Assembly: GCA_964552565.1 (NCBI GenBank)
Contig: CAZKGL010000001.1
Coordinates: forward strand, 237,113 to 301,112
Length of the DNA stretch: 64,000 nucleotides
Direction: 5' to 3'
Source: an uncultured Gammaproteobacteria bacterium
GTDB taxonomy: Bacteria > Patescibacteriota > Patescibacteriia > UBA9934
The notes under the pieces: generated by a model
Database searches by the model: none
Seen by the model: the letters and a program-made list of their open reading frames with translations, nothing else
What the model was told of the DNA's origin: nothing
Made by a program: the position numbers and the translations under genes
Shown: piece after piece, positions 7,033-64,000 of the stretch
Layout: each line of letters begins with the position of its first letter
Numbering within the stretch: position 1 is the first letter of the stretch

Positions 7033-7039
7033 TATTTCG

Positions 7040-7082
7040 CATCGCGTCCCGCCCGGGTTCATGCCTGGGGCGGGCGCTTTCT
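7040..7082 (+). repeat. Terminator-like repeat, copy 2
   Basis: catcgcgtcccgcccgggttcatgcctggggcgggcgctttctcttg, matching 5969-6010. Confidence 0.55.
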
Positions 7083-7230
7083 CTTGTGGATAACTTACTG
7101 CGAAACTAAGTTTCGAAACTTCGTTTCGGGGTGTGGATGATCGCTTGCGTGTTCGTAATCTGTACGGTATCGTTCGAATACAAATTACGATAGGTACCCC
7201 TAGAGCCCCGGCTCTCGGGGCATTTGCGTT

Positions 7231-9294: not shown

Positions 9295-9701
9295 GAGAAC
9301 TTCGGCCGACGCGGCACCTGGCTGGGGCCATCGATCTTGCAGCGCTGAAGGAGCTCCTTCAGCTCACCGGTCGACATGCTCCGCACGGTCGCCTCGTCGG
9401 GGACATCCGTGAGGCGCTTCGCGGCCGTGCCGTTGCCGATGATCTCGAGCATCACGTTCACGAGCTGGTGCTGCGTGAACGCGGCGAAGCTGCCGACCGT
9501 CGGGTCGCGCGACGTCCCTTCCGGGCGGTAGTCCTCGCTCTTCGGCGAATGCTGGCCGGGGATGCGGCGGATGCCCCGACGCATCATCGGGCCCTGGCCG
9601 GCCGGGTCGTTCGGCAGCTGCATGCTGCCGGACGTGGCGCCGGGCGCGGAACGCGGGTCGAGGTCGACGCTGCCGTCGACGCCACCCATGCCGGTGTCCA
9701 T
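9291..9701 (-). CDS. Hypothetical small protein between uvrB and uvrA
   Basis: Minus ORF whose C-terminal half is protein-like ([24 protein letters not shown]). No clear RBS. The start was chosen at MDTGMGG. Confidence 0.3.
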
Positions 9702-9762
9702 GGTGGGATCGCTTGGGTCGGTCGGACGGGTCAAGATACCTCCAAGAGCACATAAACCATAT

Positions 9763-12306
9763 ATGCAAGACCACATCATCGTCAAAGGCGCGCGGGAGCA
9801 CAACCTAAAGAACATCTCCGTGTCCATGCCGCGCAACCAACTCATTTGCATTACCGGGCTTTCCGGTAGCGGGAAGTCGAGTTTGGCGTTCGACACCATT
9901 TTCGCCGAAGGCCAGCGCCGCTACATTGAGTCGCTTTCGGCGTATGCGCGGCAGTTCCTTGGCGCCATGCAAAAACCGGACGTCGACGAGATCGAAGGCC
10001 TGTCGCCCGCGATCTCCATCGACCAGAAGGCGCACAGCCGAAATCCGCGCTCGACGATCGCGACGATCACGGAGATCTACGATTACTTGCGCGTCCTTTT
10101 TGCGCGCATCGGCGAGCCGCACTGCCCGAACTGCAGCACGCGCATCGAAAAGCTCACCGTCGACGAGATGGCGGATATTGTGGTGCGGGAGGCGGGGAAG
10201 CGGGGGGAGAAGAAGGGGAAGAAGTCGAAGCCGGAGGATCGCGAAGTGAGCATCTTGGCCCCGGTCATCCGCGGTCGCAAAGGTGAGTATTATCAATTGC
10301 TGTACGATTTGTATAACAGCGGCTTCGCGAAGGTGCGTATCGACGGCAACATGCACCGCTTGAGCGAAAAGATCAGCCTGTCGCGGTACATGCAGCATAC
10401 GATCGAGGTCGTCGTCGACACGATTCCTGTCGTCGATCTCCGGCAGCCGACGAAGGACACGCGCCAGCGCTTGAGCGAGGCGCTCGAGACCGCCACCGAC
10501 CGCGGCGACGGCGTGGCCGTCATCCTGTACGGCGAACAGGAGGAGCGCACGCTGTCCGCACGGTTCAGCTGCGTGCGGTGCGGGTTCTCGTTTCCCGAAA
10601 TCGAGCCGCGCCTGTTTTCGTTCAACAGCCCGTACGGCGCTTGCCAGGCGTGTTCCGGCCTGGGCACCGTCGACCTGTTTTCGGACGAGGTCTGCCCGAA
10701 GTGCAACGGCATGCGCCTGCGTCCCGAGGCGTTGTACGTGTGGATCGGCGAGCGCAACATCGTCGACGTCACTTCGATGTCGGTCGACGCTGCAGTTGCG
10801 TTTTTCCTTACCCTCGACCTCCAGGAACGGCAGCGCGAGATCGCGAGCACGGTATTGAAGGAGATCGAGGCGCGCTTGAGCTTTCTTTTGGACGTCGGCC
10901 TGCACTACCTGACGCTGAATCGCACTGCGGGCACGCTGTCGGGCGGCGAGGCGCAGCGCATCCGCCTCGCGTCGCAGATCGGCTCGCGGCTCACCGGCGC
11001 GCTCTACGTGCTCGACGAGCCGACCATCGGCTTGCACCAGCGCGACAACGAACGGCTCATCAAGACGCTCGAAGACTTGCGCGACCTCGGCAACACCGTG
11101 CTCGTCGTCGAACACGACGAAGACACGATCCGTCGTTCGGACTACATGGTGGAAATCGGTCCGGGGGCGGGCGTGCACGGCGGCCATGTTGTCGCGGCCG
11201 GCCCGGTGCCGGAGATTTTCAAGGACAAGAAGTCGCGGACGGCGGCGTATCTCCGTGGCGACGCGACGATTCCCGTTCCCGACACACGCCGCACAAAAGA
11301 ATCGGGCGCCATCAAAGTGCGCGGCGCGACCGAAAACAACTTGAAGAACGTCGACATCGACTTCCCGTTGCGGCGTTTCGTGTGCGTGACCGGCGTGTCG
11401 GGCAGCGGCAAGTCGTCGCTGGCGTATGACGTCATGTACAAAGCGGTCGCGAAGAAGTTGTACGGCGGCAAGGACAATCCGGGCAGCCACAAGGCGATCC
11501 TCGGCATCGAGTACATCGACAAGGCGATCCTCATCGACCAGTCCGCGATCGGCCGTACGCCGCGCAGCAACCCGGCGACCTACACCGGCGCGTGGGGCCC
11601 CGTTCGCGACCTGTTTGCGATGACCGAAGAGGCGCGCTTCCGCGGCTACAAGCCGGGGCGCTTCAGCTTCAACGTGCCGGGCGGGCGCTGCGACCATTGC
11701 GAAGGGCACGGCGTCATCGAGATCGAGATGCACTTCCTGCCGACGGTGTACGTGACGTGCGAGGTCTGCAAAGGCAAGCGCTTCAACCGCGAGACGCTCG
11801 AGGTGACATACAAGGAGAAGAACATCGCGCAAGTGCTCGAGATGACTATTGAAGAAGCGGCAACGTTCTTCGTCGACATCCCCGAAATCCACGACAAACT
11901 GAAGGCGCTGAACGACGTCGGCTTGAGCTATGTCACCCTCGGCCAGAGCGCGACGACGCTCTCCGGCGGCGAGGCGCAGCGCGTGAAGCTCGCGGCCGAA
12001 CTCAGCAAGCGCCAGACCGGCAAGACGCTGTATCTGCTTGACGAGCCGACGACCGGGCTCCATTTCGACGACGTCAAAAAGCTCCTTGAGGTGCTCCATT
12101 CGCTCGTCGACAAGGGCAACACGATCGTCGTCATCGAACATAACCTCGACGTCATCAAGACCGCGGACTACATTATCGACATGGGCCCCGAGGGCGGCGA
12201 CCAGGGCGGCACCGTCGTCGCGACCGGCACGCCGGAAGAAATTGCGCGCCGCGCGGACAGCCACACGGCGAAATACCTGCGGCCGATGCTGAAGAACAAA
12301 CGTTAG
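9763..12306 (+). CDS. uvrA: Excinuclease ABC subunit A
   Basis: [20 protein letters not shown], two ABC ATPase modules, zinc fingers CPNCSTRI and CEVCKGKRF. Confidence 0.95.
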
Positions 12307-40337: not shown

Positions 40338-43300
40338 ATGTCAGAAATCACAGCGCGCGTCGCCCCCCAGGCGGCGTCGGAAGGTCAGATTGCAGGTGCG
40401 GTTTGGCAGTTTATGACCTCGGTCAAAGAAGTGAAAAAACGCGACGGAGCAAGCCAGGCGTTTTCCGCTGACAAGCTTCGTGCGTCCGTCGAGAAGGCGC
40501 TCGCCGCAGCCGGGCAGAACAATGCCGACGCCTATGCCGGCCGCATCACGTCGCAGGTCGTGTCCCGCCTGACGCGCCAGTTTGACGGACACCGCGTTCC
40601 GACCACGTCGGAGATCCGCGAAGTCGTGTCCGTTGCCATCATCGACAACAACCTGATCCACGTCGCGAAGGCGTACATGGGGTTCAAGGCGCGGACGGAG
40701 GCTGCGGTGCCGGGCGAGAAGTACGGCAAGGGCCTTCCGTTCAGCCGCTACTTTACGAAGGACGGCGTGGCGCCGTACGCCATGCTCGAGTGGGAGAAGC
40801 GCAGCGCGGTCATCACGAACGAGAAGGGCAAGGTCGTGTTCGAACAGCACGACATCGAGGTTCCGAAGGGGTGGTCGCAGACCGCCACGAACATCGTCGC
40901 CCAGAAGTATTTCCGCGGGAAGGTCGGCACGCCGGAGCGCGAGACGTCCATGAAGCAGCTCATCGACCGCGTGGCCAAGACCATGGCGAACTGGGGCCGC
41001 AAGGACGGTTATTTCGCGACGAAAGAGGATGCGCAGGTTTTTGAAGATGAACTGACGTGGATTCTCATTAACCAGATGGCCGCGTTCAACAGCCCGGTCT
41101 GGTTCAATGTGGGCATTAATCCGCACCCGCAGTGTTCCGCGTGCTTCATCAACTCCGTGCAGGACGACATGCGTTCGATTTTGAACCTCGCGGTCACGGA
41201 AAGCATGCTCTTCAAGCAGGGCTCGGGCACGGGCAGCAACCTCTCCAAGCTCCGCTCGTCGCAGGAATACCTCGGCGGCAGCAACGGCAAGTCGTCCGGC
41301 CCCGTATCGTTCATGAAGGGCCTCGATGCCTTCGCGGGCATCGTCAAGAGCGGCGGCAAGACGCGCCGCGCGGCGAAGATGGTCATCTTGAACGTCGACC
41401 ATCCCGATGTCATGCAGTTCATCGAGTGCAAGGCGAAGGAGGAGCGGAAGGCCTGGACGCTGGTCGACGCCGGCTACGACAGCAGCATGGACGGCGAGGC
41501 GTACTCGAGTATTTTCTTCCAGAACGCGAACAACTCGGTGCGCGTGACGGATGGCTTCATGCGTGCGGTGGAGAAGGACGAGGAGTGGGTGACGAAGGAG
41601 ATTACGACCGGTAAGGATTCGCTGAAGTACAAGGCGCGCGACCTTTTCCGCGCCATGGCCGAGGCGGCGTGGCAGTGCGGCGACCCGGGCATCCAGTACG
41701 ACACGACCGTGAACCTCTGGCACACGAGCAAGAATACGGACCGCATCAACGCGTCGAACCCGTGCTCGGAATACATGTTCCTCGACGACACCGCCTGCAA
41801 CCTTTCGTCGCTCAACCTCATGAAGTTCCGCAAGGAAGCAAACGGCGTCATGGAGTTCGACGTGGAGGCGTTCACGAAGGCGTCGGAGGTCATGATTACC
41901 GCGATGGAGATCACGGTCGGCAACTCGAGCTACCCGACGCCGGCCATCGAGCAGAACAGCCACGACTTCCGCCCGCTCGGTATCGGCTACGCGAACTTGG
42001 GCGCGCTCCTCATGAGCCGGGGCCTTGCATACGACTCGGACGAGGGACGCAACCTCGCCGCCGCGATTACCGCGCTCCTTTCGGGCGCGACCTATGCGCA
42101 GTCGGCGCGCATCGCCGAGAAGATCGGCGCGTTCTCGGCCTTTGCCGTGAACCGCGAGCCGTGCATGGGCGTCATGGAGATGCACCGCCGCGCGTCCTAC
42201 GAGATGGCGCCCGCGGGCGTCCCGGCAGACCTCATGGCGGCGGCGAAGAAGAGCTGGGACGAGGTCGTCGACCGCGGCTACCAGCACGGGCTGCGTAACG
42301 CGCAGATTTCGGTCATCGCCCCGACCGGCACCATTTCGTTCCTCATGGATTGCGACACGACCGGCATCGAGCCGGACATCGCGCTCGTGAAGTACAAGTG
42401 GCTTGTGGGCGGCGGCATGCTGAAAATCGTGAACAATACCGTCCCGGAGGCGCTGACCCGCCTTGGCTACGGCGAGGCGGAGTGCAAGGATATCCTCGCC
42501 TACATCGACGAGAAGGACACCATTGAAGGCGCCCCGCACCTGAAGCCGGAGCACGTCGGCGTGTTTGACTGCGCGTTCAAGGCGAAGAACGGGACGCGCA
42601 CCATCCACCACATGGCGCACATCAACATGATGGCCGCGGTGCAGCCGTTCGTGTCCGGGGCCATCTCGAAGACGGTCAACATGCCGAACGAGGCGACGGT
42701 CGAAGATATCATGGACGTCTACATGAAGGGCTGGAAGCTCGGCTTGAAGGCGATCGCCATCTACCGCGACGGCAGCAAGCGCCAACAGGCACTTACCACG
42801 TCGAAAGAAAAAGACTCTGCGAAGGCGAATGCGAAAGAACTAGGCGGGGCCACCGCGCCCCGCCCGGAAGAGAAGAAGGATGAAACGGTCGCCGCGGCGA
42901 TCGAAACCGTAAAGGTGCAGGTGAACCCCGCAACCGCGTCGCGCCGCCGCCGCTTGCCGGACGAGCGCCGCGCCCTCACGCACAAGTTTGCGATCGGCAG
43001 CCACGAGGGCTATATCACCATCGGCCTCTACGACGACGGGACGCCGGGCGAGCTCTTCGTCACCATGTCGAAGGAAGGTTCGGTCATCAGCGGCCTCATG
43101 GATGCGTTCTCGACCAGCGTGTCGATTGGCCTGCAATACGGCGTGCCGCTCCACGTGCTCGTGAACAAGTTCGCGCACATGCGCTTTGAGCCGTCGGGCT
43201 TCACGAACAATCCCAACATCCGCATCGCGAAGTCCATCATCGACTACATCTTCCGCTACCTCGCCATGAAGTTCCTCCCGGTCGATGCACAGCTCCAGGT

Positions 43301-43601
43301 CGGCATCAACGTCGTCGAGACGCATGGCAATGACATAGGCGGGGTCACCGCGCCCCGCCAGGAAACGGTCGTGCAGCCGATCACCGACGCACAGCCGACG
43401 ATCTTCGCCTCACCGCTCGCGACCGACACGAACCCCGTCATGTCGCCGGGCACTGCGCCCGCGAAGACGACGCCCGGCCTCACGGCGACGTTCGACAACC
43501 AGTCGGACGCCCCGACGTGCGACACGTGCGGCAGCATGATGGTCCGCAACGCCGCGTGCTACAAGTGCCTGAATTGTGGGAGTACGAGTGGATGCAGTTA
43601 A
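40338..43601 (+). CDS. nrdJ: Ribonucleotide reductase class II (adenosylcobalamin-dependent), with N-terminal ATP cone and C-terminal zinc ribbon
   Basis: ATP cone, NPCSEY active-site motif, C-terminal CDTCGSMMVRNAACYKCLNC. Two REP-variant palindromes are embedded in-frame (42843-42864 and 43338-43359). Confidence 0.9.
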   Translation: MSEITARVAPQAASEGQIAGAVWQFMTSVKEVKKRDGASQAFSADKLRASVEKALAAAGQNNADAYAGRITSQVVSRLTRQFDGHRVPTTSEIREVVSVAIIDNNLIHVAKAYMGFKARTEAAVPGEKYGKGLPFSRYFTKDGVAPYAMLEWEKRSAVITNEKGKVVFEQHDIEVPKGWSQTATNIVAQKYFRGKVGTPERETSMKQLIDRVAKTMANWGRKDGYFATKEDAQVFEDELTWILINQMAAFNSPVWFNVGINPHPQCSACFINSVQDDMRSILNLAVTESMLFKQGSGTGSNLSKLRSSQEYLGGSNGKSSGPVSFMKGLDAFAGIVKSGGKTRRAAKMVILNVDHPDVMQFIECKAKEERKAWTLVDAGYDSSMDGEAYSSIFFQNANNSVRVTDGFMRAVEKDEEWVTKEITTGKDSLKYKARDLFRAMAEAAWQCGDPGIQYDTTVNLWHTSKNTDRINASNPCSEYMFLDDTACNLSSLNLMKFRKEANGVMEFDVEAFTKASEVMITAMEITVGNSSYPTPAIEQNSHDFRPLGIGYANLGALLMSRGLAYDSDEGRNLAAAITALLSGATYAQSARIAEKIGAFSAFAVNREPCMGVMEMHRRASYEMAPAGVPADLMAAAKKSWDEVVDRGYQHGLRNAQISVIAPTGTISFLMDCDTTGIEPDIALVKYKWLVGGGMLKIVNNTVPEALTRLGYGEAECKDILAYIDEKDTIEGAPHLKPEHVGVFDCAFKAKNGTRTIHHMAHINMMAAVQPFVSGAISKTVNMPNEATVEDIMDVYMKGWKLGLKAIAIYRDGSKRQQALTTSKEKDSAKANAKELGGATAPRPEEKKDETVAAAIETVKVQVNPATASRRRRLPDERRALTHKFAIGSHEGYITIGLYDDGTPGELFVTMSKEGSVISGLMDAFSTSVSIGLQYGVPLHVLVNKFAHMRFEPSGFTNNPNIRIAKSIIDYIFRYLAMKFLPVDAQLQVGINVVETHGNDIGGVTAPRQETVVQPITDAQPTIFASPLATDTNPVMSPGTAPAKTTPGLTATFDNQSDAPTCDTCGSMMVRNAACYKCLNCGSTSGCS

Positions 43602-43610
43602 ACGAGAGAG

Positions 43611-43640
43611 CATAGACGGGGTCCCCGCACCCCGTCTATG
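43611..43640 (+). repeat. REP palindrome, copy 1 (catagacggggtccccgcaccccgtctatg)
   Basis: Perfect 10-bp stem ATAGACGGGG/CCCCGTCTAT with loop TCCCCGCA. Confidence 0.8.
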
Positions 43641-43650
43641 ATTTTCCTGT

Positions 43651-44049
43651 ATGCGCCAAATCACCAAGCGTCTCCTACCAGGACAGGATCTTCGCGATGA
43701 AATCGAGAAGGTCGTCCATGACCATGATGTGAAAGCAGGAGTTCTGCTTTCCATCGTCGGATGTCTTACGTCCTTACGGCTTCGCGTCGCTGACGGGGTG
43801 ACGGTCAAGGAATGGAGCGAGAAGTTTGAAATCGTATCCGGCACCGGGACGGTATCGGTCAACGATAGCCACATCCATATCGCGGCCGCAAACCAGGAGG
43901 GCATGACGATTGGCGGGCATCTTAAACAGGGCTGCATCGTGGGAACGACGGTAGAGCTCGTGGTTCTTGCGTTCGATGACATTGCATATGTTCGCGAACC
44001 GGATGCTGCGACCGGATACGATGAGCTCGTTATCCGCGAAAAACCATAG
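43651..44049 (+). CDS. PPC/DUF296 domain protein (PD1-like DNA-binding)
   Basis: DUF296 fold pattern (IHIAAANQEGMTIGGHL...GTTVELVVLAFDD). The stop codon lies inside REP copy 2. Confidence 0.55.
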   Translation: MRQITKRLLPGQDLRDEIEKVVHDHDVKAGVLLSIVGCLTSLRLRVADGVTVKEWSEKFEIVSGTGTVSVNDSHIHIAAANQEGMTIGGHLKQGCIVGTTVELVVLAFDDIAYVREPDAATGYDELVIREKP

Positions 44050-44075
44050 ACGGGGGTCCCCGCACCCCGTCTATG
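44045..44075 (+). repeat. REP palindrome, copy 2
   Basis: catagacgggggtccccgcaccccgtctatg. Confidence 0.8.
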
Positions 44076-44082
44076 CTGTTCT

Positions 44083-44553
44083 ATGCGAACCTTTCGATGG
44101 CACGACGAACTGAAAAACGATAACGCGATTCATTTTGTTACTTCGGTGACGAAGGGGCGTACGCGGACTTTTGATGACGTGGCGCTCGCACTGTTACTGC
44201 TCGGAGAGATTCACGGATATGCGGAGAGATACTCGATGACGTTGTTTGCGTCGGTGGTCATGCCCGACCACTTCCATGCAATCCTTTGGCCGCAAGGGAA
44301 ACGGACTGTTCCGGAGTTTATGAAAGGGGTGAAGGGTTTTACCGCAAAGAAGGTCGCCGAGTATAGGCGGGGTGCGGGGACCCCGCCTATGGACGTGTGG
44401 CAAGACGAGTATTTTGATCACCTGATTACAGATGAGACTACGCTTGAAGAAAAGATTTGGTACATCATCCGCAATCCGATTGAGGACAACCTCATTGCCG
44501 AAGGCGGCGAGTACCCGTACCTTTTCGTCCAGCCCGATTACGATCCTCGCTAA
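44083..44553 (+). CDS. REP-associated tyrosine transposase (RAYT; IS200/IS605-like Y1 HUH transposase)
   Basis: HUH motif PDHFHAIL and C-terminal WQDEYFDHLI matching the RAYT WQxxY(F/W)DH motif. It contains an in-frame inverted REP copy (44363-44392) and is flanked by REPs. Confidence 0.75.
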   Translation: MRTFRWHDELKNDNAIHFVTSVTKGRTRTFDDVALALLLLGEIHGYAERYSMTLFASVVMPDHFHAILWPQGKRTVPEFMKGVKGFTAKKVAEYRRGAGTPPMDVWQDEYFDHLITDETTLEEKIWYIIRNPIEDNLIAEGGEYPYLFVQPDYDPR

Positions 44554-44579
44554 AGGCGGGGTGCGGGACCCCGCCTATG
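44552..44579 (-). repeat. REP palindrome, copy 4 (inverted), spanning the RAYT stop and the ATG of the next gene
   Basis: aaaggcggggtgcgggaccccgcctATGa. Confidence 0.7.
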
Positions 44580-53879: not shown

Positions 53880-55541
53880 ATGGAGGGCTATTTGTTCGTG
53901 GAAGTCGGAGCGGTCATCGTCGTCGCAGGGCTCTTTTCGGTATTGGCGTACCGGCTCCGGCAGCCGCTGATCATTGCATACATCCTGACCGGCGTCCTCG
54001 TGGGGCCGGGCGTGTTCGGGCTCGTCCATTCGCCCGAGATCTTCGCCGGGCTCTCGCAGATCGGCATCGCGTTCCTCTTGTTCATCGTCGGCCTCAACCT
54101 GAACTGGCGCAACGTGCGTGAAGTCGGCGGCGTGGCGTTCCTCGGCGGCGTCTCGCAGGTCGTCTTCACCTCGCTCCTCGGGTACGCCATCGCGCGGCTC
54201 CTCGACTTCGACGCGACGACCAGCATCTTCCTCGCTATCGCGTTCTCGTTCTCGTCGACCATCATCATCGTCAAGCTGCTCTCGGACAAGGAGGACCTCG
54301 ACCGGCTGTACGGACGCATCGCCGTCGGCATGCTCATCGTGCAGGACATCATCGCGATGTTCCTGCTCCTCGGTATCGCCGCATTACGCGACGGCGGCGC
54401 GCTCACGACGGTCCTCACGGTGTCGCTCGGCAAAGGCGCGCTGGTCCTCGTCGCGCTTTTCGTCATTACGCGGTTCATGCTCCCGCCGCTCTTCAAGTTC
54501 GCCGCACGGTCGCAGGAGCTGCTCTTCCTTATCGCCATCGCGTGGTGTTTCGCCATCGCGTCCGCGCTCCTTGCGGTCGGCTTCGGCATCGAGATCGGCG
54601 CGCTCATGGCCGGCATCAGCCTCGCGGGGACCGGGTTCCAGCACGACATCGAGGCGAAGGTGCGCCCGCTGCGCGACTTCTTCCTCATCATCTTCTTCAT
54701 CGTGCTCGGCACGCAGCTCACCGTGTCCGCGGTGGCGACGCTGTGGCTGCCGGCGCTCATCATGAGCCTCTACGTCCTCATCGGGAACCCGCTGATCGCC
54801 ATGGCCATCATGCGCCTCATGGGCTACCACCCGCGCAGCGCGTTTTTGACCGGTACGACCGTCGCGCAGATCAGCGAGTTCTCGTTCATCTTGCTCTCCG
54901 GCGGCATGGCGGCCGGGCTTGTCGCGCAGGAGTCCATCCCGCTCGCGACCGCCGTGGCCCTCGTGACGATTACGCTTTCGTCGTACCTCATCGAATACAA
55001 CGAACAGGTCTACGAGCGCCTCGCATTCGTCTTTGAGCGGTTCGGCCTCGGTCACCGCGCCGAAGGGCATCGCGCGAAAGTCCCGGACTATATCCTCTTC
55101 GGGTACAACCGCATGGGCAGGCGGCTCTTGCCGCAGCTCGAGGCGTTGCCGGGGCAGACGGTCGTCGTCGACTACAACCCTACGGTCATCGACGAGCTTG
55201 CGGAACACGGCGTCCCGAGCATGTACGGCGACGCGGGCAGCGAGGACGTGCTGCGGTTCCTCCACGCGGAGAAAGCGAAGCTCCTTGTGTCGACCGTGCC
55301 CGACATCGAAGTGACGAAGGACATGTTGGACTATTTCCGCGCCCACCGCGCGCGCGGCACCATTATCGTCACGGCGCGCAGCGCCGACGAAGCGGCGCAG
55401 TGCTACGGCCTTGGCGCAACGTACGTGGTTATCCCCAGCGTGCTTGGCGGCGAGGCCTTGGGGCAGTACCTTAAGGCGAAGAAGACGACAAAGTCGGGCT
55501 GGCAGGCGCTGGCGCGAAAGCAAGAACATCATGAACGATAG
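53880..55541 (+). CDS. Monovalent cation:proton antiporter-2 (CPA2, Kef-type) with C-terminal TrkA-N/RCK domain
   Basis: Twelve to thirteen TM helices with Na_H_Exchanger motifs, then an RCK Rossmann domain (ILFGYNRMGRRL). Confidence 0.85.
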   Translation: MEGYLFVEVGAVIVVAGLFSVLAYRLRQPLIIAYILTGVLVGPGVFGLVHSPEIFAGLSQIGIAFLLFIVGLNLNWRNVREVGGVAFLGGVSQVVFTSLLGYAIARLLDFDATTSIFLAIAFSFSSTIIIVKLLSDKEDLDRLYGRIAVGMLIVQDIIAMFLLLGIAALRDGGALTTVLTVSLGKGALVLVALFVITRFMLPPLFKFAARSQELLFLIAIAWCFAIASALLAVGFGIEIGALMAGISLAGTGFQHDIEAKVRPLRDFFLIIFFIVLGTQLTVSAVATLWLPALIMSLYVLIGNPLIAMAIMRLMGYHPRSAFLTGTTVAQISEFSFILLSGGMAAGLVAQESIPLATAVALVTITLSSYLIEYNEQVYERLAFVFERFGLGHRAEGHRAKVPDYILFGYNRMGRRLLPQLEALPGQTVVVDYNPTVIDELAEHGVPSMYGDAGSEDVLRFLHAEKAKLLVSTVPDIEVTKDMLDYFRAHRARGTIIVTARSADEAAQCYGLGATYVVIPSVLGGEALGQYLKAKKTTKSGWQALARKQEHHER

Positions 55542-55546
55542 ACCAT

Positions 55547-56080
55547 ATGGAACGACAAGAATGGCGCGGCGCGCCGCCGATTGACCTGCGCAAGCAAGAA
55601 GTCCGCGAATGGGCGGAGGAGCGCGGGCCCGAAGACGAACCGACGAACGTGGAGGAGTTGCCTGCGGCCGAACCGGAGCCGACGTCTGAAGCGGATGCAC
55701 TCGAGGAGTTGCGGCAGGACGAGGACTTCGCACATGCCGAGCGCTACCATGAAGGTCTTGAGCACTTCCGTGGTGACTTGCAGCACATCGTCGAAACCGG
55801 ATCGCTTGGTTCGTATGACAATGAAGGCAACCTCTCGTCTGTCGTCAACAAGGATTTGTCGAAGCAGGTTGCGGAGGTCATGAAATCGCGCGACTGGGAC
55901 GAGGCCGCCGCGGCGCTGTACGTCGCTGCGCAATGGCGCCAACATGCGCTCGAGTCGTATAGCGCCATCCTTGACCGTGCGAATGACGCGACCATGCGCC
56001 GGATCATTATCGAAAAGATGCATGCAGTCGAGAAGATGGTCGTCCACGGAGCCGACCAGAAACGCGTGTCCAGCATGTAG
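55547..56080 (+). CDS. Hypothetical acidic protein
   Basis: ORF of 177 aa with normal composition. Confidence 0.4.
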   Translation: MERQEWRGAPPIDLRKQEVREWAEERGPEDEPTNVEELPAAEPEPTSEADALEELRQDEDFAHAERYHEGLEHFRGDLQHIVETGSLGSYDNEGNLSSVVNKDLSKQVAEVMKSRDWDEAAAALYVAAQWRQHALESYSAILDRANDATMRRIIIEKMHAVEKMVVHGADQKRVSSM

Positions 56081-56107
56081 TTTCCGCGGCGCTTGACGAC
56101 GGTTCAG

Positions 56108-56134
56108 TTAGCACTCTATAATCCCGAGTGCTAA
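56108..56134 (+). promoter_or_regulatory. CIRCE operator (TTAGCACTC-N9-GAGTGCTAA), HrcA binding site
   Basis: Perfect match TTAGCACTCtataatcccGAGTGCTAA ending 2 nt before the hrcA ATG. The spacer contains TATAAT. Confidence 0.9.
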
Positions 56135-56136
56135 CT

Positions 56137-56850
56137 ATGTTGAACGATCGTCAAGCGAAAATTTTGCGCGCCGTCGTCGAGGAGTACATCCGTACTGCCG
56201 AGCCGGTGGCGTCAAAGACGATTACGGACAAGTACGTGTCGGCGGTATCGCCGGCCACGGTTCGCAATGATTTGATGGCCTTGACTGAGGCCCTCTTTTT
56301 GTTGCAGCCACACACCTCTGCCGGCCGCGTGCCGACGGAGCAGGGGTACCGCTATTACCTCGACAACTTCCTCAAGGTGGAGCGCGCCGAACGTGTCGCC
56401 GCGGAGCTGAAAGCTGCGGTGACGCATGCGCAGACGCCGGAAGCCGTGCTCCGCGCCGTGTCGCGCGCACTCGTCGACCTGTCCGGGGAGACCGCGTTCG
56501 TGGCGAGCGACGAACACGGCTCGCAGTATGCCGGCCTGGCGAACCTCATGCGCAAGCCCGAGTTCGAGGACGCGGAGCGGCGCGAGAAGATTGCGCACGC
56601 CATCGACCACGTCGATCACGCCGTGGCCGAACTGCTGGAACTCGCCGGCGAAGACGTCCGCGTGTGGATGGGAAACGAAAATCCGTTGTCTGCCGAAATG
56701 GCGACCGTCGTCGTGCGCGTCCGCCTGCCGGACGGCAGCATCGGCCTCCTCGGCCTCCTCGGCCCCTTGCGTATGCGCTACGGCCGCAACATCGGCCTCC
56801 TCCAAGAGGTGAAACGCATGCTCGATACCACATTTGAAGAACGTGAATAG
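56137..56850 (+). CDS. hrcA: Heat-inducible transcription repressor HrcA (short, 237 aa)
   Basis: N-terminal wHTH (DRQAKILRAVVEEYIRTAEPVASKTI), CIRCE upstream, followed by grpE-dnaK. Confidence 0.85.
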   Translation: MLNDRQAKILRAVVEEYIRTAEPVASKTITDKYVSAVSPATVRNDLMALTEALFLLQPHTSAGRVPTEQGYRYYLDNFLKVERAERVAAELKAAVTHAQTPEAVLRAVSRALVDLSGETAFVASDEHGSQYAGLANLMRKPEFEDAERREKIAHAIDHVDHAVAELLELAGEDVRVWMGNENPLSAEMATVVVRVRLPDGSIGLLGLLGPLRMRYGRNIGLLQEVKRMLDTTFEERE

Positions 56851-56852
56851 CT

Positions 56853-57350
56853 ATGACGGATGAACAGCACAACACAATAGACGGGGTCCCCGCACCCCGT
56901 CCGAGCGATGACCTCCAAGCGAAGTGCGACGAGTATCTCGCCGGATGGAAACGCGCGCTGGCCGACTACGAAAACTTGCAAAAGCATAACGCACAGGAAC
57001 GCGAGAACGACCGACGCCGCATCCGCACGAACCTCGCGCTCGACCTCCTGCCCGTCGTCGACAACTTCGACCAGGCGCTCAAGTTCGCTCCGAAGGACGT
57101 CGATGCGAACTGGTTCGCCGGCGTCGCGCACATCGCGCGGCAGTTCGCGGAGGCGCTCAAGAACATGGGCATCGAACCCATCGAGTCCGTCGGCCATGTC
57201 TTTGACCCGAACCTCCACGAGAGCGGCGGGTCGCGCTGGGAGGACGACACGCCGGAGGGCGTGGTCATCGAAGAAGTCATCCGCGGATGGAAGATGGGCG
57301 ATATGGTCATCCGTCCTGCAAAAGTCATCGTGAACCAAAAATCCGAATAA
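56853..57350 (+). CDS. grpE: Nucleotide exchange factor GrpE
   Basis: GrpE coiled coil and C-terminal beta domain. A REP palindrome (56887-56913) is embedded in-frame near the N-terminus ([12 protein letters not shown]). Confidence 0.9.
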
Positions 57351-59249
<1,899 letters not shown>

Positions 59250-59252
59250 CCT

Positions 59253-59849
59253 ATGCGCAAATTAAGTAGTGAGACAAAGATGGGCCAGGTTCTAGAAACC
59301 GCAAATTATATCTCACGCTTAATTTCTCAGATAGAACAGGGGGATCTTGATGCGGCAAGAAGTCTTGCGACAAACGTCTCGAAAGTTCTTCTTAAGGACA
59401 AGTATGCCAGGACATCACGCCTGTCCGACCTTGCAACCGAAGTTGGTGTCCCGTTGAACGTTTTCTTCAAGCCACCCGTCGATACCGTGCAAAAACTTGC
59501 AAGGATTGGGATCCCGGCCCCTACGATTGTGTACGAAGGAGAAACGTTCTCGTGTGAGCCCACTGAACCGTGGCAGGTCCAGACTTCCCTTGAAGAATTC
59601 CTGGGTTCGCGTTGCTTCTGGATTAAAGGAACAGAGATTTCATTCGAAACGGTTCTGAAGACTGTGCGAGATAAGTTGGATGCGCACTTAGACGACGCAC
59701 TACCCGATGAGTACATTCTTATGCAGGGGGTCGGCATCGGAGGTGCGCAAGGTTACGGGAGGCCTATCTACGCCCTGGGTAAATTGACCCTTGAGTTAAT
59801 CGATGTGGTGTATGGAGGATGGAAGATGCGCTACGGCGAGCTTCGATAG
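59253..59849 (+). CDS. Hypothetical protein encoded in a low-GC (about 50%) segment inserted after dnaK
   Basis: ORF of 198 aa. Its nucleotide composition is clearly lower in GC than the flanking sequence. Alternative start at 59280. Confidence 0.5.
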   Translation: MRKLSSETKMGQVLETANYISRLISQIEQGDLDAARSLATNVSKVLLKDKYARTSRLSDLATEVGVPLNVFFKPPVDTVQKLARIGIPAPTIVYEGETFSCEPTEPWQVQTSLEEFLGSRCFWIKGTEISFETVLKTVRDKLDAHLDDALPDEYILMQGVGIGGAQGYGRPIYALGKLTLELIDVVYGGWKMRYGELR

Positions 59850-60321
59850 ACAACCTACGGAGATTCACAGGCGCATCATCGCGTTATTAGATGAGAAGGA
59901 CGTCCAGTACACGACGGCGCATCATGACCCGACGTATACGAGCGAGCAAGCGTCACAGATGCGCAACGTCCCGATGCATGCCGGCGCAAAGGCGCTGGTG
60001 ATGCGCGGGAAGAAAACCGGGGCGCACTGGCTGTTCGTCATGCCGGCCGACCTTCGGCTCGACACGAAAAAGGCGCAAGCGGTCGTTGGCGAACCTGTCT
60101 GCTTTGCACCGGAACCCGAGGAAGTGACCGGGTGCGTGAAGGGGAGCGTGCCGCCGTTCGGGAGCGCCATCGGCCTGAAAACGTACTGCGACACGCGACT
60201 CGCCGAGAACGAAACGATCCATTTCAACGCCGGCAGCCTCACGGATTCCGTCTCGATGCGTTATCATGACTACGTCGCCATCGAGCAGCCGACACTTGTC
60301 GAGATTGCCGCAGCGGCCTAA
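59812..60321 (+). CDS. YbaK/ProX-type aminoacyl-tRNA deacylase domain protein
   Basis: YbaK domain pattern (HHDPTYTSEQAS...GAKALVMRGKKTG...GSVPPFG). The start is uncertain: no in-frame ATG after the upstream stop, so the overlapping ATG at 59812 was used. Confidence 0.6.
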   Translation: MEDGRCATASFDRQPTEIHRRIIALLDEKDVQYTTAHHDPTYTSEQASQMRNVPMHAGAKALVMRGKKTGAHWLFVMPADLRLDTKKAQAVVGEPVCFAPEPEEVTGCVKGSVPPFGSAIGLKTYCDTRLAENETIHFNAGSLTDSVSMRYHDYVAIEQPTLVEIAAAA

Positions 60322-60332
60322 GGTCCCTCTCT

Positions 60333-61295
60333 ATGCGCAGATTCGAAACCGGAGGTTTCCTCCTCGGTGTCGTCGCCGTCATGGCGGTCGCCACCTTCGC
60401 GTACATCGGCTTCATGCTTGCCCGTGACCCGCAGAAGGCGGAGACGGTGTCGGAAGGCATTGAAGAGGCGACCGAGACCACCGAGGTCGTGGCGGCGACG
60501 GAGGCGACTGCGGAGTCGCAGGCGCTCCACGACCGGTATGTCGCACTCGGGTACCCGGACGACGCCGCATTGCCGGCGGAGTTCGTTGCGGAAATCCTCG
60601 TCGCGTACGAGTCTGGGAAGCTCCCGGTGGTCGACCAGCTCGCGCACGGCGACGACGGCAATTACGCCGTCATCGTCTCGGCGGCGGAGATCGGTGCGCC
60701 CAATCCGAATTACTGCGGCCTCTACGGCCAAGATGTCTGCTTCTTGCTCTACCATGATGACGAGGGGACCGAGGTATTGACGGTATTCGACGCGATCCGC
60801 GGAAGCCCGCAGGCGACCATGGGCAGCCCGATCCTCGAAGAGTTCCTTGGCGACGGCTCGTTGCTTGTCGTCGCGGCGTCCGGCGACGGACCGGAGGTGA
60901 ACGAAAAGGGATATGCGGTCGTGCCGGGGTCGCCGGGGAACGTGTTCGAAGTCGCTGCGGTCAGCATGACGCTGTCGCCGCCGCTGCGGGCCACCGTCTC
61001 GGTTCGCGGCGAGGCCGAGCACGCGCTGACATTCGCCATGGAAGAAACCGGGCAGAAAGTCGCCGGCGACCTCGTCATCACCGACATGCGCATTGCGGTG
61101 TCCGATGACAGCGGCGACCTTGGCGTTCTCGAAGGTTCGTACAACGCGGACACGGAGACCGCAGTCAGCGTCGACTACGCGAAGACGTTTTCGGACAGTC
61201 TGTTCGTCATCGACGACCGCTTCGGCATCAACGTCTGGGTGCTCGGCACCCTGTACCGGTACGACGGCAGTACGTTTACTGAAGTCACTGAATAA
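60333..61295 (+). CDS. Hypothetical membrane-anchored protein
   Basis: N-terminal TM (FLLGVVAVMAVATFAYIGFML), acidic linker, about 250-aa extracytoplasmic domain. Confidence 0.5.
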   Translation: MRRFETGGFLLGVVAVMAVATFAYIGFMLARDPQKAETVSEGIEEATETTEVVAATEATAESQALHDRYVALGYPDDAALPAEFVAEILVAYESGKLPVVDQLAHGDDGNYAVIVSAAEIGAPNPNYCGLYGQDVCFLLYHDDEGTEVLTVFDAIRGSPQATMGSPILEEFLGDGSLLVVAASGDGPEVNEKGYAVVPGSPGNVFEVAAVSMTLSPPLRATVSVRGEAEHALTFAMEETGQKVAGDLVITDMRIAVSDDSGDLGVLEGSYNADTETAVSVDYAKTFSDSLFVIDDRFGINVWVLGTLYRYDGSTFTEVTE

Positions 61296-61303
61296 TCTCT
61301 CGC

Positions 61304-61690
61304 ATGAACCCGCAAAAAGAATACGCGCTCCTGTGTGAATTCCTGACGCAGTCCGCGAACGGCTTGTACAGTTACCTGCATGTGTTCGACCGCACCAACT
61401 TCAAGGAGGGCGCGCCGCTCATGCTGAACGCCAACCTCGCGGTGCGCTTCCGTGGCATGCCGGACGGCGCGAACCTCGAAATCTACATGACCGACGACAC
61501 GAACACGCTGCTCGACAAAGGCACGGTGTTCAAACAGCAGGTGAAGGGCAGCAACGTGCATATCATCGCGAAGATCCGCGGTCTCGTCGTGCCGCGTCAC
61601 GGCGAGTACCGCTTCGCCGCGCGCATCGACGGGGGCGAGCCGGTCGCGTTGTGCGCGTGGATGGCGGACAAAGCCCCGGTGTCCTCGTGA
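61304..61690 (+). CDS. Hypothetical protein (128 aa)
   Basis: ORF with normal composition. Confidence 0.45.
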   Translation: MNPQKEYALLCEFLTQSANGLYSYLHVFDRTNFKEGAPLMLNANLAVRFRGMPDGANLEIYMTDDTNTLLDKGTVFKQQVKGSNVHIIAKIRGLVVPRHGEYRFAARIDGGEPVALCAWMADKAPVSS

Positions 61691-61691
61691 T

Positions 61692-61853
61692 ATGCTGATC
61701 CGCCGTCTGCTTGTTCGTACATTCTCGGCAATCTTCTCGGCGCTGTTGTGGTTGCTGACATTCAAGCGCGTCCGCTCCTGGCTTTGGCGCCGGGTGACGC
61801 GTCCGCCAAAGGCAGGGAAGGTGATCGATGCGGAAGGAAAGGTCATCGAGTAG
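61692..61853 (+). CDS. Small membrane peptide (53 aa), not in ORF track
   Basis: ATG 1 nt after the upstream stop. Hydrophobic helix FSAIFSALLWLLTF. Confidence 0.3.
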   Translation: MLIRRLLVRTFSAIFSALLWLLTFKRVRSWLWRRVTRPPKAGKVIDAEGKVIE

Positions 61854-61871
61854 GACACCCGCTCGTTTGCT

Positions 61872-62927
61872 ATGGCAAAAGATTATTACGCAATGTTGGG
61901 TATCACGAAGTCCGCGAGTCAGGACGAGATTAAGGCCGCGTTTCGCAAGCTCGCGCACCAGCATCACCCGGACAAGGGCGGCGACGAGGCGAAGTTTAAG
62001 GAGATCAACGAGGCATACCAGATTCTTGGCGACGAAAAGAAGCGCGCACAGTACGACCAGTTTGGCGGTGCGGCGTTTGACGGTACCGGCAACTTCAACG
62101 GGGGTTTCGGCGGTTTCGGCCAAGGATTCGACCCCTCGATGTTTGGCGACCTCGGCGATATCCTGGGCGGCATGTTTGGCGGCATGGGGGGCGGGACGCG
62201 GCGCGCACGCGGCGGCGACATCGCGGTCGACGTCGCGCTGAGTTTTAAGGAGGCGGTGTTCGGCGTGGAAAAAGAGATCCCGCTCAACAAGTCGTTTGCG
62301 TGCGACCGTTGCGGCGGCGTCGGCGCGGAGCCGGGGACGGGCATGAAGAAATGCCACACCTGCAACGGCCAAGGCTACACCGTCGGTGCGCAGCGCACGG
62401 TGTTTGGCACCATGCAAACGCGCAGCGCATGCGGTACGTGCCACGGCCGCGGCGAAATCCCGGAAAAGCCGTGCAGCACCTGCAGCGGCAGCGGCGTCGT
62501 GCACACCCGCAAGACGATCCGCGTCGACATCCCACCTGGCGTCGAGGACGGCGTGCAGATCCGCGTGCGCGGGCAAGGAGAGGCGATCGGGGCGGCAGGC
62601 GAACCGGGCGACCTGTACCTGCAGGTCCACGTGCAGTCCGACCCGCGCTTCACGCGGGAAGGTGCTACAATTTACGTCACGAAGCCGGTTGGCTTTACGC
62701 AGGCCGCGCTCGGCGACGAGGTCGAAGTCGACACGGTTGACGGGAAGGTCAGCATGAAGATCCCGCCCGGAACGCAATCCGGCGACGAGTTGCGCTTGCG
62801 CGGCAAGGGCGTTGCAATCGGACGCGGGCGCGGCGACCAGATCGTCGTCATCCAGGTCGTGACCCCGAAAAAGCTTGGACGCAAGGAGCGGGAACTGCTC
62901 GAAGCATTGAATCTGCGCGAATCGTAA
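61872..62927 (+). CDS. dnaJ: Molecular chaperone DnaJ (short, 351 aa)
   Basis: J domain with HPD (HHPDKGG), G/F region, four CxxCxGxG zinc-finger repeats, C-terminal domains. Confidence 0.95.
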   Translation: MAKDYYAMLGITKSASQDEIKAAFRKLAHQHHPDKGGDEAKFKEINEAYQILGDEKKRAQYDQFGGAAFDGTGNFNGGFGGFGQGFDPSMFGDLGDILGGMFGGMGGGTRRARGGDIAVDVALSFKEAVFGVEKEIPLNKSFACDRCGGVGAEPGTGMKKCHTCNGQGYTVGAQRTVFGTMQTRSACGTCHGRGEIPEKPCSTCSGSGVVHTRKTIRVDIPPGVEDGVQIRVRGQGEAIGAAGEPGDLYLQVHVQSDPRFTREGATIYVTKPVGFTQAALGDEVEVDTVDGKVSMKIPPGTQSGDELRLRGKGVAIGRGRGDQIVVIQVVTPKKLGRKERELLEALNLRES

Positions 62928-62928
62928 T

Positions 62929-63630
62929 ATGGCGACACTGCTCGTCCTGCACGGCTGGGGGCACCACAAAGGAATGTGGACGTCGTTTGCGTCCATGATG
63001 CAGCCGGCGCTCCCGACGGTCGTCCTCGACCTGCCGGGTTTCGGCGACGAGCCGCTTGTTGACGCGAACTGGCAGATTCCCGACTACGCCCGTTGGGTCG
63101 CGGACGAGGTTGCGAAGCGCGGGCTCACGGATGTCATCATGCTCGGTCATTCGTTTGGCGGGCGGATCGCCGCATCTCTCGCCGCACAGCGACCGTCATG
63201 GCTCTGCGGACTCATCTTGTACGGCGCGCCGTGCCTGTACCGGCCGACTGCGCGCGTCGCGCTCCAAAATAGCGTTGCCCGGGTTCTCGGCCGCTTGCCG
63301 ATCCCCGCGTCGCTGCGCGCGATGGCGCGGAACGACGAAGACCGGGCGGCGCATGACGGCGGCCTCGGCGCCGTCTTCCGCAACACCGTGCGCTTCGACC
63401 AGACGTCGACCTTGCCGCGCATCGCCGTGCCGACGCTCCTCGTGTGGGGCGCGGAGGACGCGGACGTACCGCTTGGCATCGCGCGTGCAATGCTGGCGCT
63501 CATCCCGGGCGCAGCACTCGAGGTCATCGACCGCGCCGGTCACAACGCCCACCTTGACCAACCCGTGCTGTTTTACGGCATCATCACCCGCTATGTCGAA
63601 GCGCTCACGTCCGCTCATCCCGCTGCGTGA
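62929..63630 (+). CDS. Alpha/beta hydrolase fold protein
   Basis: LVLHGWG, nucleophile elbow GHSFGG. ATG overlaps the dnaJ stop region. Confidence 0.7.
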   Translation: MATLLVLHGWGHHKGMWTSFASMMQPALPTVVLDLPGFGDEPLVDANWQIPDYARWVADEVAKRGLTDVIMLGHSFGGRIAASLAAQRPSWLCGLILYGAPCLYRPTARVALQNSVARVLGRLPIPASLRAMARNDEDRAAHDGGLGAVFRNTVRFDQTSTLPRIAVPTLLVWGAEDADVPLGIARAMLALIPGAALEVIDRAGHNAHLDQPVLFYGIITRYVEALTSAHPAA

Positions 63631-64000
63631 TTTTCTCTACATCCTGCAGCTTGAGGAATACGAGACGCTGCAGTACGCGCGGAGCGCCCGCCGGCTGTGG
63701 TGGGGGCATCATTTCGAGCGGCGTGACCGGCTCCGCTTTACCGCCCGCGCCAAGGCGACGTTCGCGGTTTCCGTCGTGCTCTTTATCGCGCTTGTGCTCC
63801 TGGCGGGCGTTCTTGCGAAAGGCCATGGTCTTGTCATGCTGGGATCGGCGGTCATTGGGTCGCTCCTGACGCCGCTCATCGTTGGCGTTGCCAACGTCCT
63901 GCTCCTGCCGGTGACCGCCGTCGCGAAGTGGCGCGTCGTCCGCGCGGCGTCGAAACGCATGGCGCACGCCGGCGGCAAGGCGACGGTCGTCGCGGTGGCG
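63593..64000 (+). CDS. Hypothetical membrane protein, N-terminal part; the 3' end runs off the window
   Basis: Open frame from ATG 63593 (MSKRSRPLIPLRDFLYILQLEEYETLQY...) to the window end, with hydrophobic helices. Not in the track because it is truncated. Confidence 0.4.
   Translation, partial: MSKRSRPLIPLRDFLYILQLEEYETLQYARSARRLWWGHHFERRDRLRFTARAKATFAVSVVLFIALVLLAGVLAKGHGLVMLGSAVIGSLLTPLIVGVANVLLLPVTAVAKWRVVRAASKRMAHAGGKATVVAVA

Follow-up and report, generated by a model that had tools for sequence, protein, structure and literature searches.

A GC-poor gene probably acquired between dnaK and ybaK in the split heat-shock operon of a Candidatus Uhrbacteria genome

The genes hrcA, grpE, dnaK and dnaJ lie in the same orientation, as one unit, in a 64-kb stretch of Candidatus Uhrbacteria (Patescibacteria) DNA (the window), and all four have Pfam matches. 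Five open reading frames (ORFs) stand between dnaK and dnaJ, as an earlier note on this DNA had claimed and as gene order and Pfam matches bear out. We analyzed these five ORFs and in particular the first, ORF1, a GC-poor gene directly behind dnaK that is probably a single-gene islet of horizontal transfer. The genes of the operon are spaced by 1-18 nt, with an overlap between the frames of ORF1 and a ybaK-like gene, and the locus has the following features (coordinates in the window).

56093-56122, + strand: sigma-70-like promoter TTGACG-18-TATAAT (promoter scan, 11/12 matches)
56108-56134, + strand: CIRCE (controlling inverted repeat of chaperone expression) operator TTAGCACTC-N9-GAGTGCTAA, 0 mismatches, 0/100 shuffles, overlapping the promoter including its -10 box
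56128-56850, + strand: hrcA, 240 aa (PF01628 4.7e-16, also PF03444)
56853-57350, + strand: grpE, 165 aa (PF01025 2.6e-36), with a REP-like (repetitive extragenic palindrome) palindrome in frame at 56879-56902
57354-59249, + strand: dnaK, 631 aa (PF00012 7e-258)
59253-59849, + strand: ORF1, 198 aa, lineage-specific, GC-poor, of a rare unnamed family, starting 3 nt past the dnaK stop
59812-60321 (frame open from 59803), + strand: ybaK/ProX-like deacylase (PF04073 8.3e-25), a predicted free-standing aminoacyl-tRNA trans-editing protein
60333-61295, + strand: ORF3, 320 aa, no Pfam match, N-terminal membrane anchor (hydrophobic residues ~4-31)
61304-61690, + strand: ORF4, a DUF6941 protein, 128 aa (PF22091, 27.6 bits vs a cut-off of 27)
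61692-61853, + strand: ORF5, 53 aa, single-pass membrane peptide (hydrophobic residues 6-24)
61872-62927, + strand: dnaJ, 351 aa (PF00226, PF00684, PF01556)
62929-63630, + strand: alpha/beta hydrolase, directly after dnaJ

By these features the locus is a canonical heat-shock operon under CIRCE/HrcA control, here in Candidatus Uhrbacteria (Patescibacteria). Scans of the + strand from 59253 to 61871 found no promoter-like or terminator-like site, and an Rfam scan of 55000-64000 found no RNA family.

ORF1 stands out by its composition. Its GC content is 0.499, whereas the operon genes on either side have 0.629 and the window has 0.631; an earlier estimate of about 50% for the gene held (49.9%), whereas the roughly 66% given for its surroundings was measured at about 63%. 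The windowed GC and GC3 check that had been proposed came out in favor of the contrast, as the 600-bp window of ORF1 is the lowest in the 64 kb (0.498 vs a mean of 0.631, sd 0.036) and its GC1/GC2/GC3 values are 0.56/0.40/0.54, with GC3 of the other operon genes at 0.74-0.89. GC1 exceeds GC2, the pattern of coding sequence, and the 607-nt slot holds no stops over 199 codons, a run that 0.26% of 5000 first-order-Markov resamplings attained in any of six frames (P ~0.003). We place the start at ATG 59253, 3 nt after the dnaK stop, because the N-terminus MRKLSSETK aligns with RRKLSFAER of the homologue P0128. A hydropathy scan of ORF1 found no hydrophobic window.

We compared the locus with relatives from three panels: a DnaJ query against one genome per GTDB species, a metagenome scan with the DUF6941 alignment that gave 18 further loci, and contigs encoding the closest YbaK homologues. 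ORF1 was missing from every relative examined (L082, L110, L104, L089, L090, L108 and L114 lack it). The closest relative, the Logan contig L082 (aa identity of 91% for DnaK, 89% for HrcA and 82% for DUF6941), has the gene order hrcA-grpE-dnaK-(206-aa ORF)-ybaK-ORF3-DUF6941, and its DNA is 82% identical to the window over hrcA-dnaK and 71% over ybaK-DUF6941. Across the slot between these segments (window 59237-59889 vs L082 4477-5148) blastn aligned nothing, and BLASTP found ORF1 and the 206-aa slot ORF unrelated (E=2.9). A shared 3' tail of the two ORFs, GATGCGYTACG (..MRY..), was rejected because 51/500 shuffles reach the observed score. The dnaK|ybaK junction is occupied as follows.

Window: ORF1, 198 aa; occupant GC 0.499 vs flanks 0.629
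L082: 206-aa ORF; occupant GC 0.473 vs flanks 0.576
L104/105: 147-aa ORF; occupant GC 0.446 vs flanks 0.53
L110: 262-aa ORF; occupant GC 0.446 vs flanks 0.545
L089, L090, L108/109, L114-116: empty; 40-47-nt spacer with hairpin

The four occupants are mutually unrelated (all-vs-all E>3), and each lies 8-13 GC points below its own flanks. The empty junctions, in four lineages, carry a conserved REP-like hairpin, (T)AGGCGGGR-loop-YCCCGCC(T), and the same hairpin directly follows dnaK in L092, though no ybaK is found there. Because lineages other than that of the window are either empty with the hairpin or hold unrelated GC-poor ORFans, the junction is best read as a recurrent hotspot of gene gain or gene replacement.

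The similarity search with the 198-aa protein that the earlier note had called for returned the protein itself and nothing else from 5.8e9 proteins when word-indexed (its database entry is MBI1908411.1, 'hypothetical protein HYS28_03270 [Candidatus Uhrbacteria bacterium]', assembly GCA_016177675.1, and it is also present on an 838,942-bp contig and in a Logan assembly), and four remote full-length homologues of ~200 aa each from 1.84e9 representative proteins when run exhaustively with HMMER: P0124 (E=2e-7, 30% identity), P0125, P0126 and P0128. The five sequences align collinearly end to end (alignment A3) with 14 invariant residues, H145, D147, P151 and G164 among them, all of which ORF1 keeps. 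ORF1 belongs to a very rare unnamed family with five known members and no Pfam entry. A GC contrast between homologue and surroundings could be examined on three contigs, two of which have enough flank to judge. On a contig labelled Chloroflexi (L111) the gene for P0126 has a GC of 0.49 vs 0.65 for the remainder, and the gene for P0128 (L113; 0.476 vs 0.57) adjoins a phage-type tyrosine integrase (PF00589, 1e-23); the contig of P0124 (L112) shows no contrast between gene and flanks. At the start of L112, ~110 nt before P0124, is a tRNA-like 3' end (GTAGG-TTCGAAT-CCTAC-GGGCTCA, by eye), cut off by the contig end, for which ARAGORN and Rfam gave no confirmation. P0128 also matches phrog_7805, a PHROG of unknown function, at 9e-5 over nearly its full length.

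Modeling with AlphaFold2 (AF2) depended on the family alignment: a single sequence gave an unusable model (pLDDT 37.7), whereas the five sequences of A3 gave a pLDDT of 77.6 and a pTM of 0.79 for ORF1. The model shows a helical bundle whose N- and C-terminal helices are long, plus a small beta insert. Foldseek found no match with E<2 in the PDB, and matches in BFVD were weak, the best being uncharacterised phage proteins (TM-score 0.5-0.57). Searches of phage and plasmid collections by tblastn, an IMG/VR scan, and phmmer and profile searches of PDB sequences all returned nothing for ORF1. Models of anti-phage phospholipase effectors were matched marginally by P0126 only (PADLOC 3e-4, NCBIfam 6e-4) and by ORF1 itself not at all, so we treat this link as a weak lead only. 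Membership in the HEPN superfamily was rejected on profile and motif: no HEPN profile match was found for ORF1, and although H145 and D147 are invariant in the family, the Arg of the R-x4-6-H motif, which ORF1 has as an R-x5-H string, occurs in 2/5 members, unlike in HEPN-fold proteins (toxins, Csm6, AbiV, ANT C-terminal domains).

The ybaK-like protein encoded downstream of ORF1 contains the PF04073 tRNA_edit domain (87.7 bits vs a cut-off of 25.5) and keeps all family-invariant residues, with H59, G61, A62, K63 and A64 invariant in alignment A1; the Lys of the G-A-K-A motif is catalytic in this family. Against the YbaK_EbsC equivalog TIGR00011 (Cys-tRNA(Pro) deacylase) it scores 52.7 bits, under the cut-off of 153/153.25, and it is therefore not YbaK sensu stricto. 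Among solved structures 3op6, TTHA1699 and ProXp-ala 5vxb come closest, the JGI (Joint Genome Institute) label of its homologues is Ala-tRNA(Pro) deacylase, and it is nearest to ProX/ProXp-ala-type proteins.

More than 2700 homologues of this protein, mostly of 152-153 aa, begin M-(T)-E-V-Y-x-K-I-I; the window has T-E-I-H-R-R-I-I, with ACG (59857-59859) at the position of the relatives' start ATG. It had been noticed before that the deacylase gene overlaps ORF1 and lacks a usable start after the ORF1 stop, and our analysis agrees. Past the ORF1 TAG (59847-59849) the next in-frame ATG/GTG/TTG is ATG 59959, from which the existing NCBI gene call for the contig (120 aa) begins, and a start there would remove ~30 conserved N-terminal residues. 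The frame is open back to TAA 59797-59799, and its canonical starts, ATG 59803 and ATG 59812, both lie within ORF1, giving overlaps of 47 and 38 nt and a non-homologous N-terminal extension of 15-18 residues that overlaps ORF1. Since the ancestral ATG is now ACG and ATG 59959 cuts into conserved residues, ybaK most likely initiates within the 3' end of ORF1, at ATG 59812 or 59803. As a separate observation, the window genome has 63% GC and the relatives (L002-L007, L082, L086-L110) 40-57%, with L082 at 56.5% despite 91% DnaK identity, which hints that GC content has recently risen strongly in the window lineage; the ATG-to-ACG change runs in the same direction.

The remaining genes of the interval are shared with relatives. 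Among species-representative genomes, the six nearest (64-73% DnaJ identity; all that bear a taxon label are Uhrbacteria or Patescibacteria) have dnaK and dnaJ 803-3407 nt apart; in most non-Patescibacteria matches the gap is 50-260 nt. ybaK follows dnaK or its slot ORF directly in L082, L089, L090, L104/105, L108/109, L110 and L114-116, and in L095 it lies upstream of DUF6941 on a contig that stops short of dnaK. DUF6941 is in the interval of L002, L005 and L006 and is encoded by 18/18 metagenome loci, between dnaK and dnaJ wherever the contig has both, in a scan that was anchored on DUF6941 and hence biased; several loci of that scan (L089, L090, L095) have ybaK as well. The DUF6941 alignment (A2) shows 48-81% identity to the window protein, which backs up its marginal PF22091 score, and a full-text literature search for DUF6941 found no papers. 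ORF3, a clade-specific resident of the interval, has homologues in L082 (64%), L110, L007 (31%), L100 and L101, and L002 has a related ORF that is shorter but shares the C-terminal motif (by eye). ORF5 combines a transmembrane helix, a basic stretch and a C-terminal K-V-I-D-x-x-G/A-K-V-I-E motif, and similar peptides occur in most relatives examined (L002-L007, L087, L089, L093, L096, L100). These are 49-68 aa long with the motif (K/E)-V-I-D-V/A-x-x-K-V/I-I/K-E, lie between dnaK and dnaJ, in most cases immediately before dnaJ, and received no family assignment; by analogy they could be chaperone-associated small proteins. Examples are the following.

L002: 9755-9925
L004: 9354-9542
L005: 9783-9989
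L007: 9825-9974
L089: 8579-8761
L093: 4066-4272
L096: 937-1110
L100: 5577-5744

ybaK, ORF3, DUF6941 and ORF5 have a host-like GC3 of 0.74-0.88 (ybaK 0.77), and various other genes accompany them in the intervals of relatives. Because these four residents recur in relatives with host-like composition, we read the split dnaK...dnaJ operon as an ancestral trait of the clade rather than an insertion. The earlier note had treated all five ORFs as an anomalous interruption and had named, as what would refute it, related genomes with the same intervening genes and uniform composition. Such genomes exist for four of the five genes, and that part of the claim falls; they do not for ORF1, which the synteny comparison found absent from relatives where ybaK, ORF3, DUF6941 and ORF5 are residents.

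Gene content of the interval differs even among close strains. L114 (3521-5197) and L115 (2356-3443) have an identical YbaK (P0013), followed by a 103-aa ORF in one and DUF6941 in the other, so the interval varies even between very close strains. The L004 interval holds a 213-aa Ham1/ITPase-like ORF (8702-9343) and a 126-aa ORF resembling DUF559/Vsr-type endonucleases (9578-9958), both by eye; in L084, ybaK follows metK and is itself followed by a Vsr + GIY-YIG protein (6469-7134, precomputed Pfam). Turnover at these two loci may be partly due to homing-endonuclease-like genes. At the other end of the operon, a 177-aa acidic ORF with no Pfam match (55547-56080) lies directly upstream of the hrcA promoter, and a homologous region precedes hrcA in L082 (74% nt identity over 550 bp).

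The hairpin seen where the junction is empty is one of a family of palindromes, (A)TAG[G/A]CGGGG-loop-CCCCG[C/T]CTATG, that also occurs in the window, where the strict pattern has 4 matches vs 0.09 expected. Six copies sit in a 1.8-kb span around a REP-associated tyrosine transposase (RAYT), and those at 43616, 44050, 44367 and 44556 flank or lie in the RAYT region.

42844-42863, 43339-43358, 43616-43635, 44050-44070, 44367-44386, 44556-44574, 56881-56900: palindromes
43651-44049: PCC-domain protein (PF03479), upstream of the RAYT
44083-44553: RAYT (NF047646, 97.4 bits vs a cut-off of 80)

Palindromes are in frame within nrdJ (twice, ..GGATAPRP.. and ..GGVTAPRQ..), the RAYT gene and the N-terminus of grpE, the last being absent from L082 grpE; such in-frame copies recall Rickettsia palindromic elements. 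The 3' ...CTATG of the copy at 44556-44574 supplies the ATG of a downstream ORF at 44577. After ORF1, the segment 43651-44553 is the GC-poorest patch of the window (0.52-0.55), and within it the PCC-domain gene and the RAYT are each bracketed by palindromes, a REPtron-like arrangement in a Patescibacteria genome.

Taken together, we consider it probable that ORF1 is a single-gene islet gained by horizontal transfer, at a recurrent hotspot in an operon whose split is ancestral to the clade. Horizontal acquisition, which the earlier note had suggested from GC content, gains support from three directly observed lines: ORF1 is the compositional extreme of the window, it is absent from related loci, and its remote homologues lie in other contexts. 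On these grounds it appears to be the only recent foreign arrival among the five interval genes. In this clade the interval would normally contain a variable subset of the deacylase, ORF3, DUF6941 and the ~50-aa membrane peptide, and ORF1 would have inserted exactly between the dnaK stop and ybaK, either by homologous recombination in the conserved dnaK and ybaK sequences on its two sides or by targeting of the REP-like hairpin. A source in mobile-element or phage cargo is suggested by the family's occurrence in GC-poor patches, beside an integrase or as a phage-family-like protein. Because it starts only 3 nt after dnaK and lacks a promoter-like or terminator-like site of its own, ORF1 would be co-transcribed with dnaK by read-through from the heat-shock promoter and so be heat-induced, and its role may be that of a strain-specific accessory gene ('moron'-like, possibly phage-related) rather than a chaperone component. 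After its arrival the original ybaK ATG would have changed to ACG, and ybaK translation would now start from an ATG inside the 3' end of ORF1, the inserted gene supplying the replacement start.

Several points weigh against this interpretation. No obvious Shine-Dalgarno sequence precedes ORF1 (the closest GAGG is 13 nt upstream of the ATG), and no mobility gene, tRNA or convincing flanking repeat was found at its borders in the window. ORF1 itself has no meaningful match in Pfam (E up to 10), NCBIfam, PHROGs or PADLOC, and its fold matches are generic helical bundles that indicate no function. The relatives are mostly short metagenomic contigs, and all members of the subclade with the ybaK-ORF3 order (window, L082, L110) have an occupied slot, so that a repeatedly replaced ancient occupant would leave the same pattern as independent insertions.

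That last pattern would also be expected if ORF1 were an old vertical resident evolving too fast for the sister slot ORFs of L082, L110 and L104 to be recognised, and the window and L082 ORFs are indeed similar in length (198 and 206 aa). We regard this as very improbable, since the slot ORFs share no detectable similarity (E>3) whereas the fast-evolving neighbor ORF3 keeps 64% identity, the L082 ORF opens with long hydrophobic stretches (read from sequence) that ORF1 lacks, significant full-length homologues of ORF1 occur in unrelated contexts, and a GC3 of 0.54 in a genome of GC3 ~0.8 argues for short residence. The segment could instead be the decaying remnant of an insertion, or a spacer in which an ORF arose by chance, tolerated for the new ybaK start that it offers; its unclear ribosome-binding site, unadapted codon composition, lack of close homologues and poor single-sequence AF2 model fit such an origin, but the full-length collinearity with four homologues and the 14 retained invariant residues, the stop-free slot (P ~0.003), the confident family-alignment model and the coding-type excess of GC1 over GC2 make it unlikely. 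A joint arrival of ORF1 and ybaK as one 1080-bp insertion between dnaK and ORF3 is hardly credible. Its appeal lies in a 13-nt direct repeat, CTATGCGCAAATT (59251) and CTATGCGCAGATT (60331), that matches at 12/13 positions (family D15) exactly at the ORF1 and ORF3 start codons, and in the position of the ORF3-like gene of L002 directly after dnaK. We rejected the repeat as an insertion scar, as chance alone would yield about 0.8 such 12/13 matches over the 1.6 kb searched (our own estimate) and synteny contradicts it: ybaK follows dnaK without ORF1 in L089, L090, L108 and L114-116 and with other slot occupants in L082, L104 and L110. The GC3 of ybaK (0.77) is moreover host-like, and the first codons of ORF1 are homologous to the ORF1 family, not to ORF3.

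The palindromes raise the question of whether the hairpin after dnaK is itself an active target, with cassettes captured by a hairpin-directed mechanism (RAYT/IS200-type or REP-targeting) and put under heat-shock control. Empty sites do carry the palindrome family that flanks the RAYT in the window, and four different occupants are found at one junction. We nevertheless judge this improbable, because no half-REP remnants or target duplications were found at the ORF1 borders, no transposase adjoins any occupant, and homologous recombination via the dnaK and ybaK flanks explains the pattern equally well. Doubtful, too, is the bolder proposal that the slot 3' of dnaK is a dedicated capture site, marked by the REP-type hairpin of a RAYT system, into which unrelated foreign ORFs are repeatedly inserted or swapped under HrcA/CIRCE control. 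If true, it would amount to a stress-induced slot for accessory, perhaps anti-phage, genes in reduced-genome episymbionts, and the ORF1 family would be new, extremely rare and a distant relative of uncharacterised phage proteins.

The favored reading, a single-gene islet at a hotspot, has parallels in known systems. Horizontal-transfer hotspots, or flexible genomic islets, reportedly lie between conserved core genes (Oliveira et al. 2017 are said to have described them). The dnaK|ybaK junction resembles these in having conserved flanks that hold different, compositionally deviant, strain-specific genes or nothing; it differs in that the islet is a single gene in a chaperone operon of a reduced genome, spaced by 3 nt, with no integrase, tRNA or repeats at its borders. 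An integron cassette was rejected, as the ORF1 stop lies inside the ybaK frame and leaves no room for attC, and no attC-type inverted repeat was found; integrons further differ in their cassette array and intI, neither of which is nearby. Extended dnaK operons are known from Bacillus subtilis (hrcA-grpE-dnaK-dnaJ-yqeT-yqeU-yqeV) and Thermus thermophilus (dnaK-grpE-dnaJ-dafA), where DafA is a small operon-encoded chaperone cofactor. The window likewise has a CIRCE/HrcA-type operon with extra small, conserved, co-oriented genes (ORF3, DUF6941, the 53-aa peptide), but here they lie between dnaK and dnaJ and there after dnaJ, and family searches found no homology of the extra genes to DafA or the yqe genes; DafA is a loose precedent for the 53-aa peptide as a possible chaperone-linked small protein. 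With the trans-editing proteins of the INS superfamily (YbaK, ProXp-ala/ProX, PrdX) the deacylase shares the PF04073 domain and the invariant residues, including the G-A-K-A Lys, and differs from them in its lost canonical start (ATG to ACG) and its N-terminal extension overlapping ORF1.

By our comparison a split dnaK...dnaJ is the normal architecture of this Patescibacteria clade, so that a false alarm over the interval as a whole is avoided. Because the deacylase, DUF6941, ORF3 and the membrane peptide are conserved within a heat-shock operon in very small genomes, they are candidates for proteostasis-linked roles. The ORF1 family, with five members, no Pfam entry and a fold predicted with confidence, could be given a name. 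Together with the unrelated ORFs in the same slot of sister genomes, ORF1 would provide a clean natural example of single-gene gain or replacement in reduced genomes, and the same locus would show start-codon migration, with ybaK now dependent on an ATG from the inserted gene.

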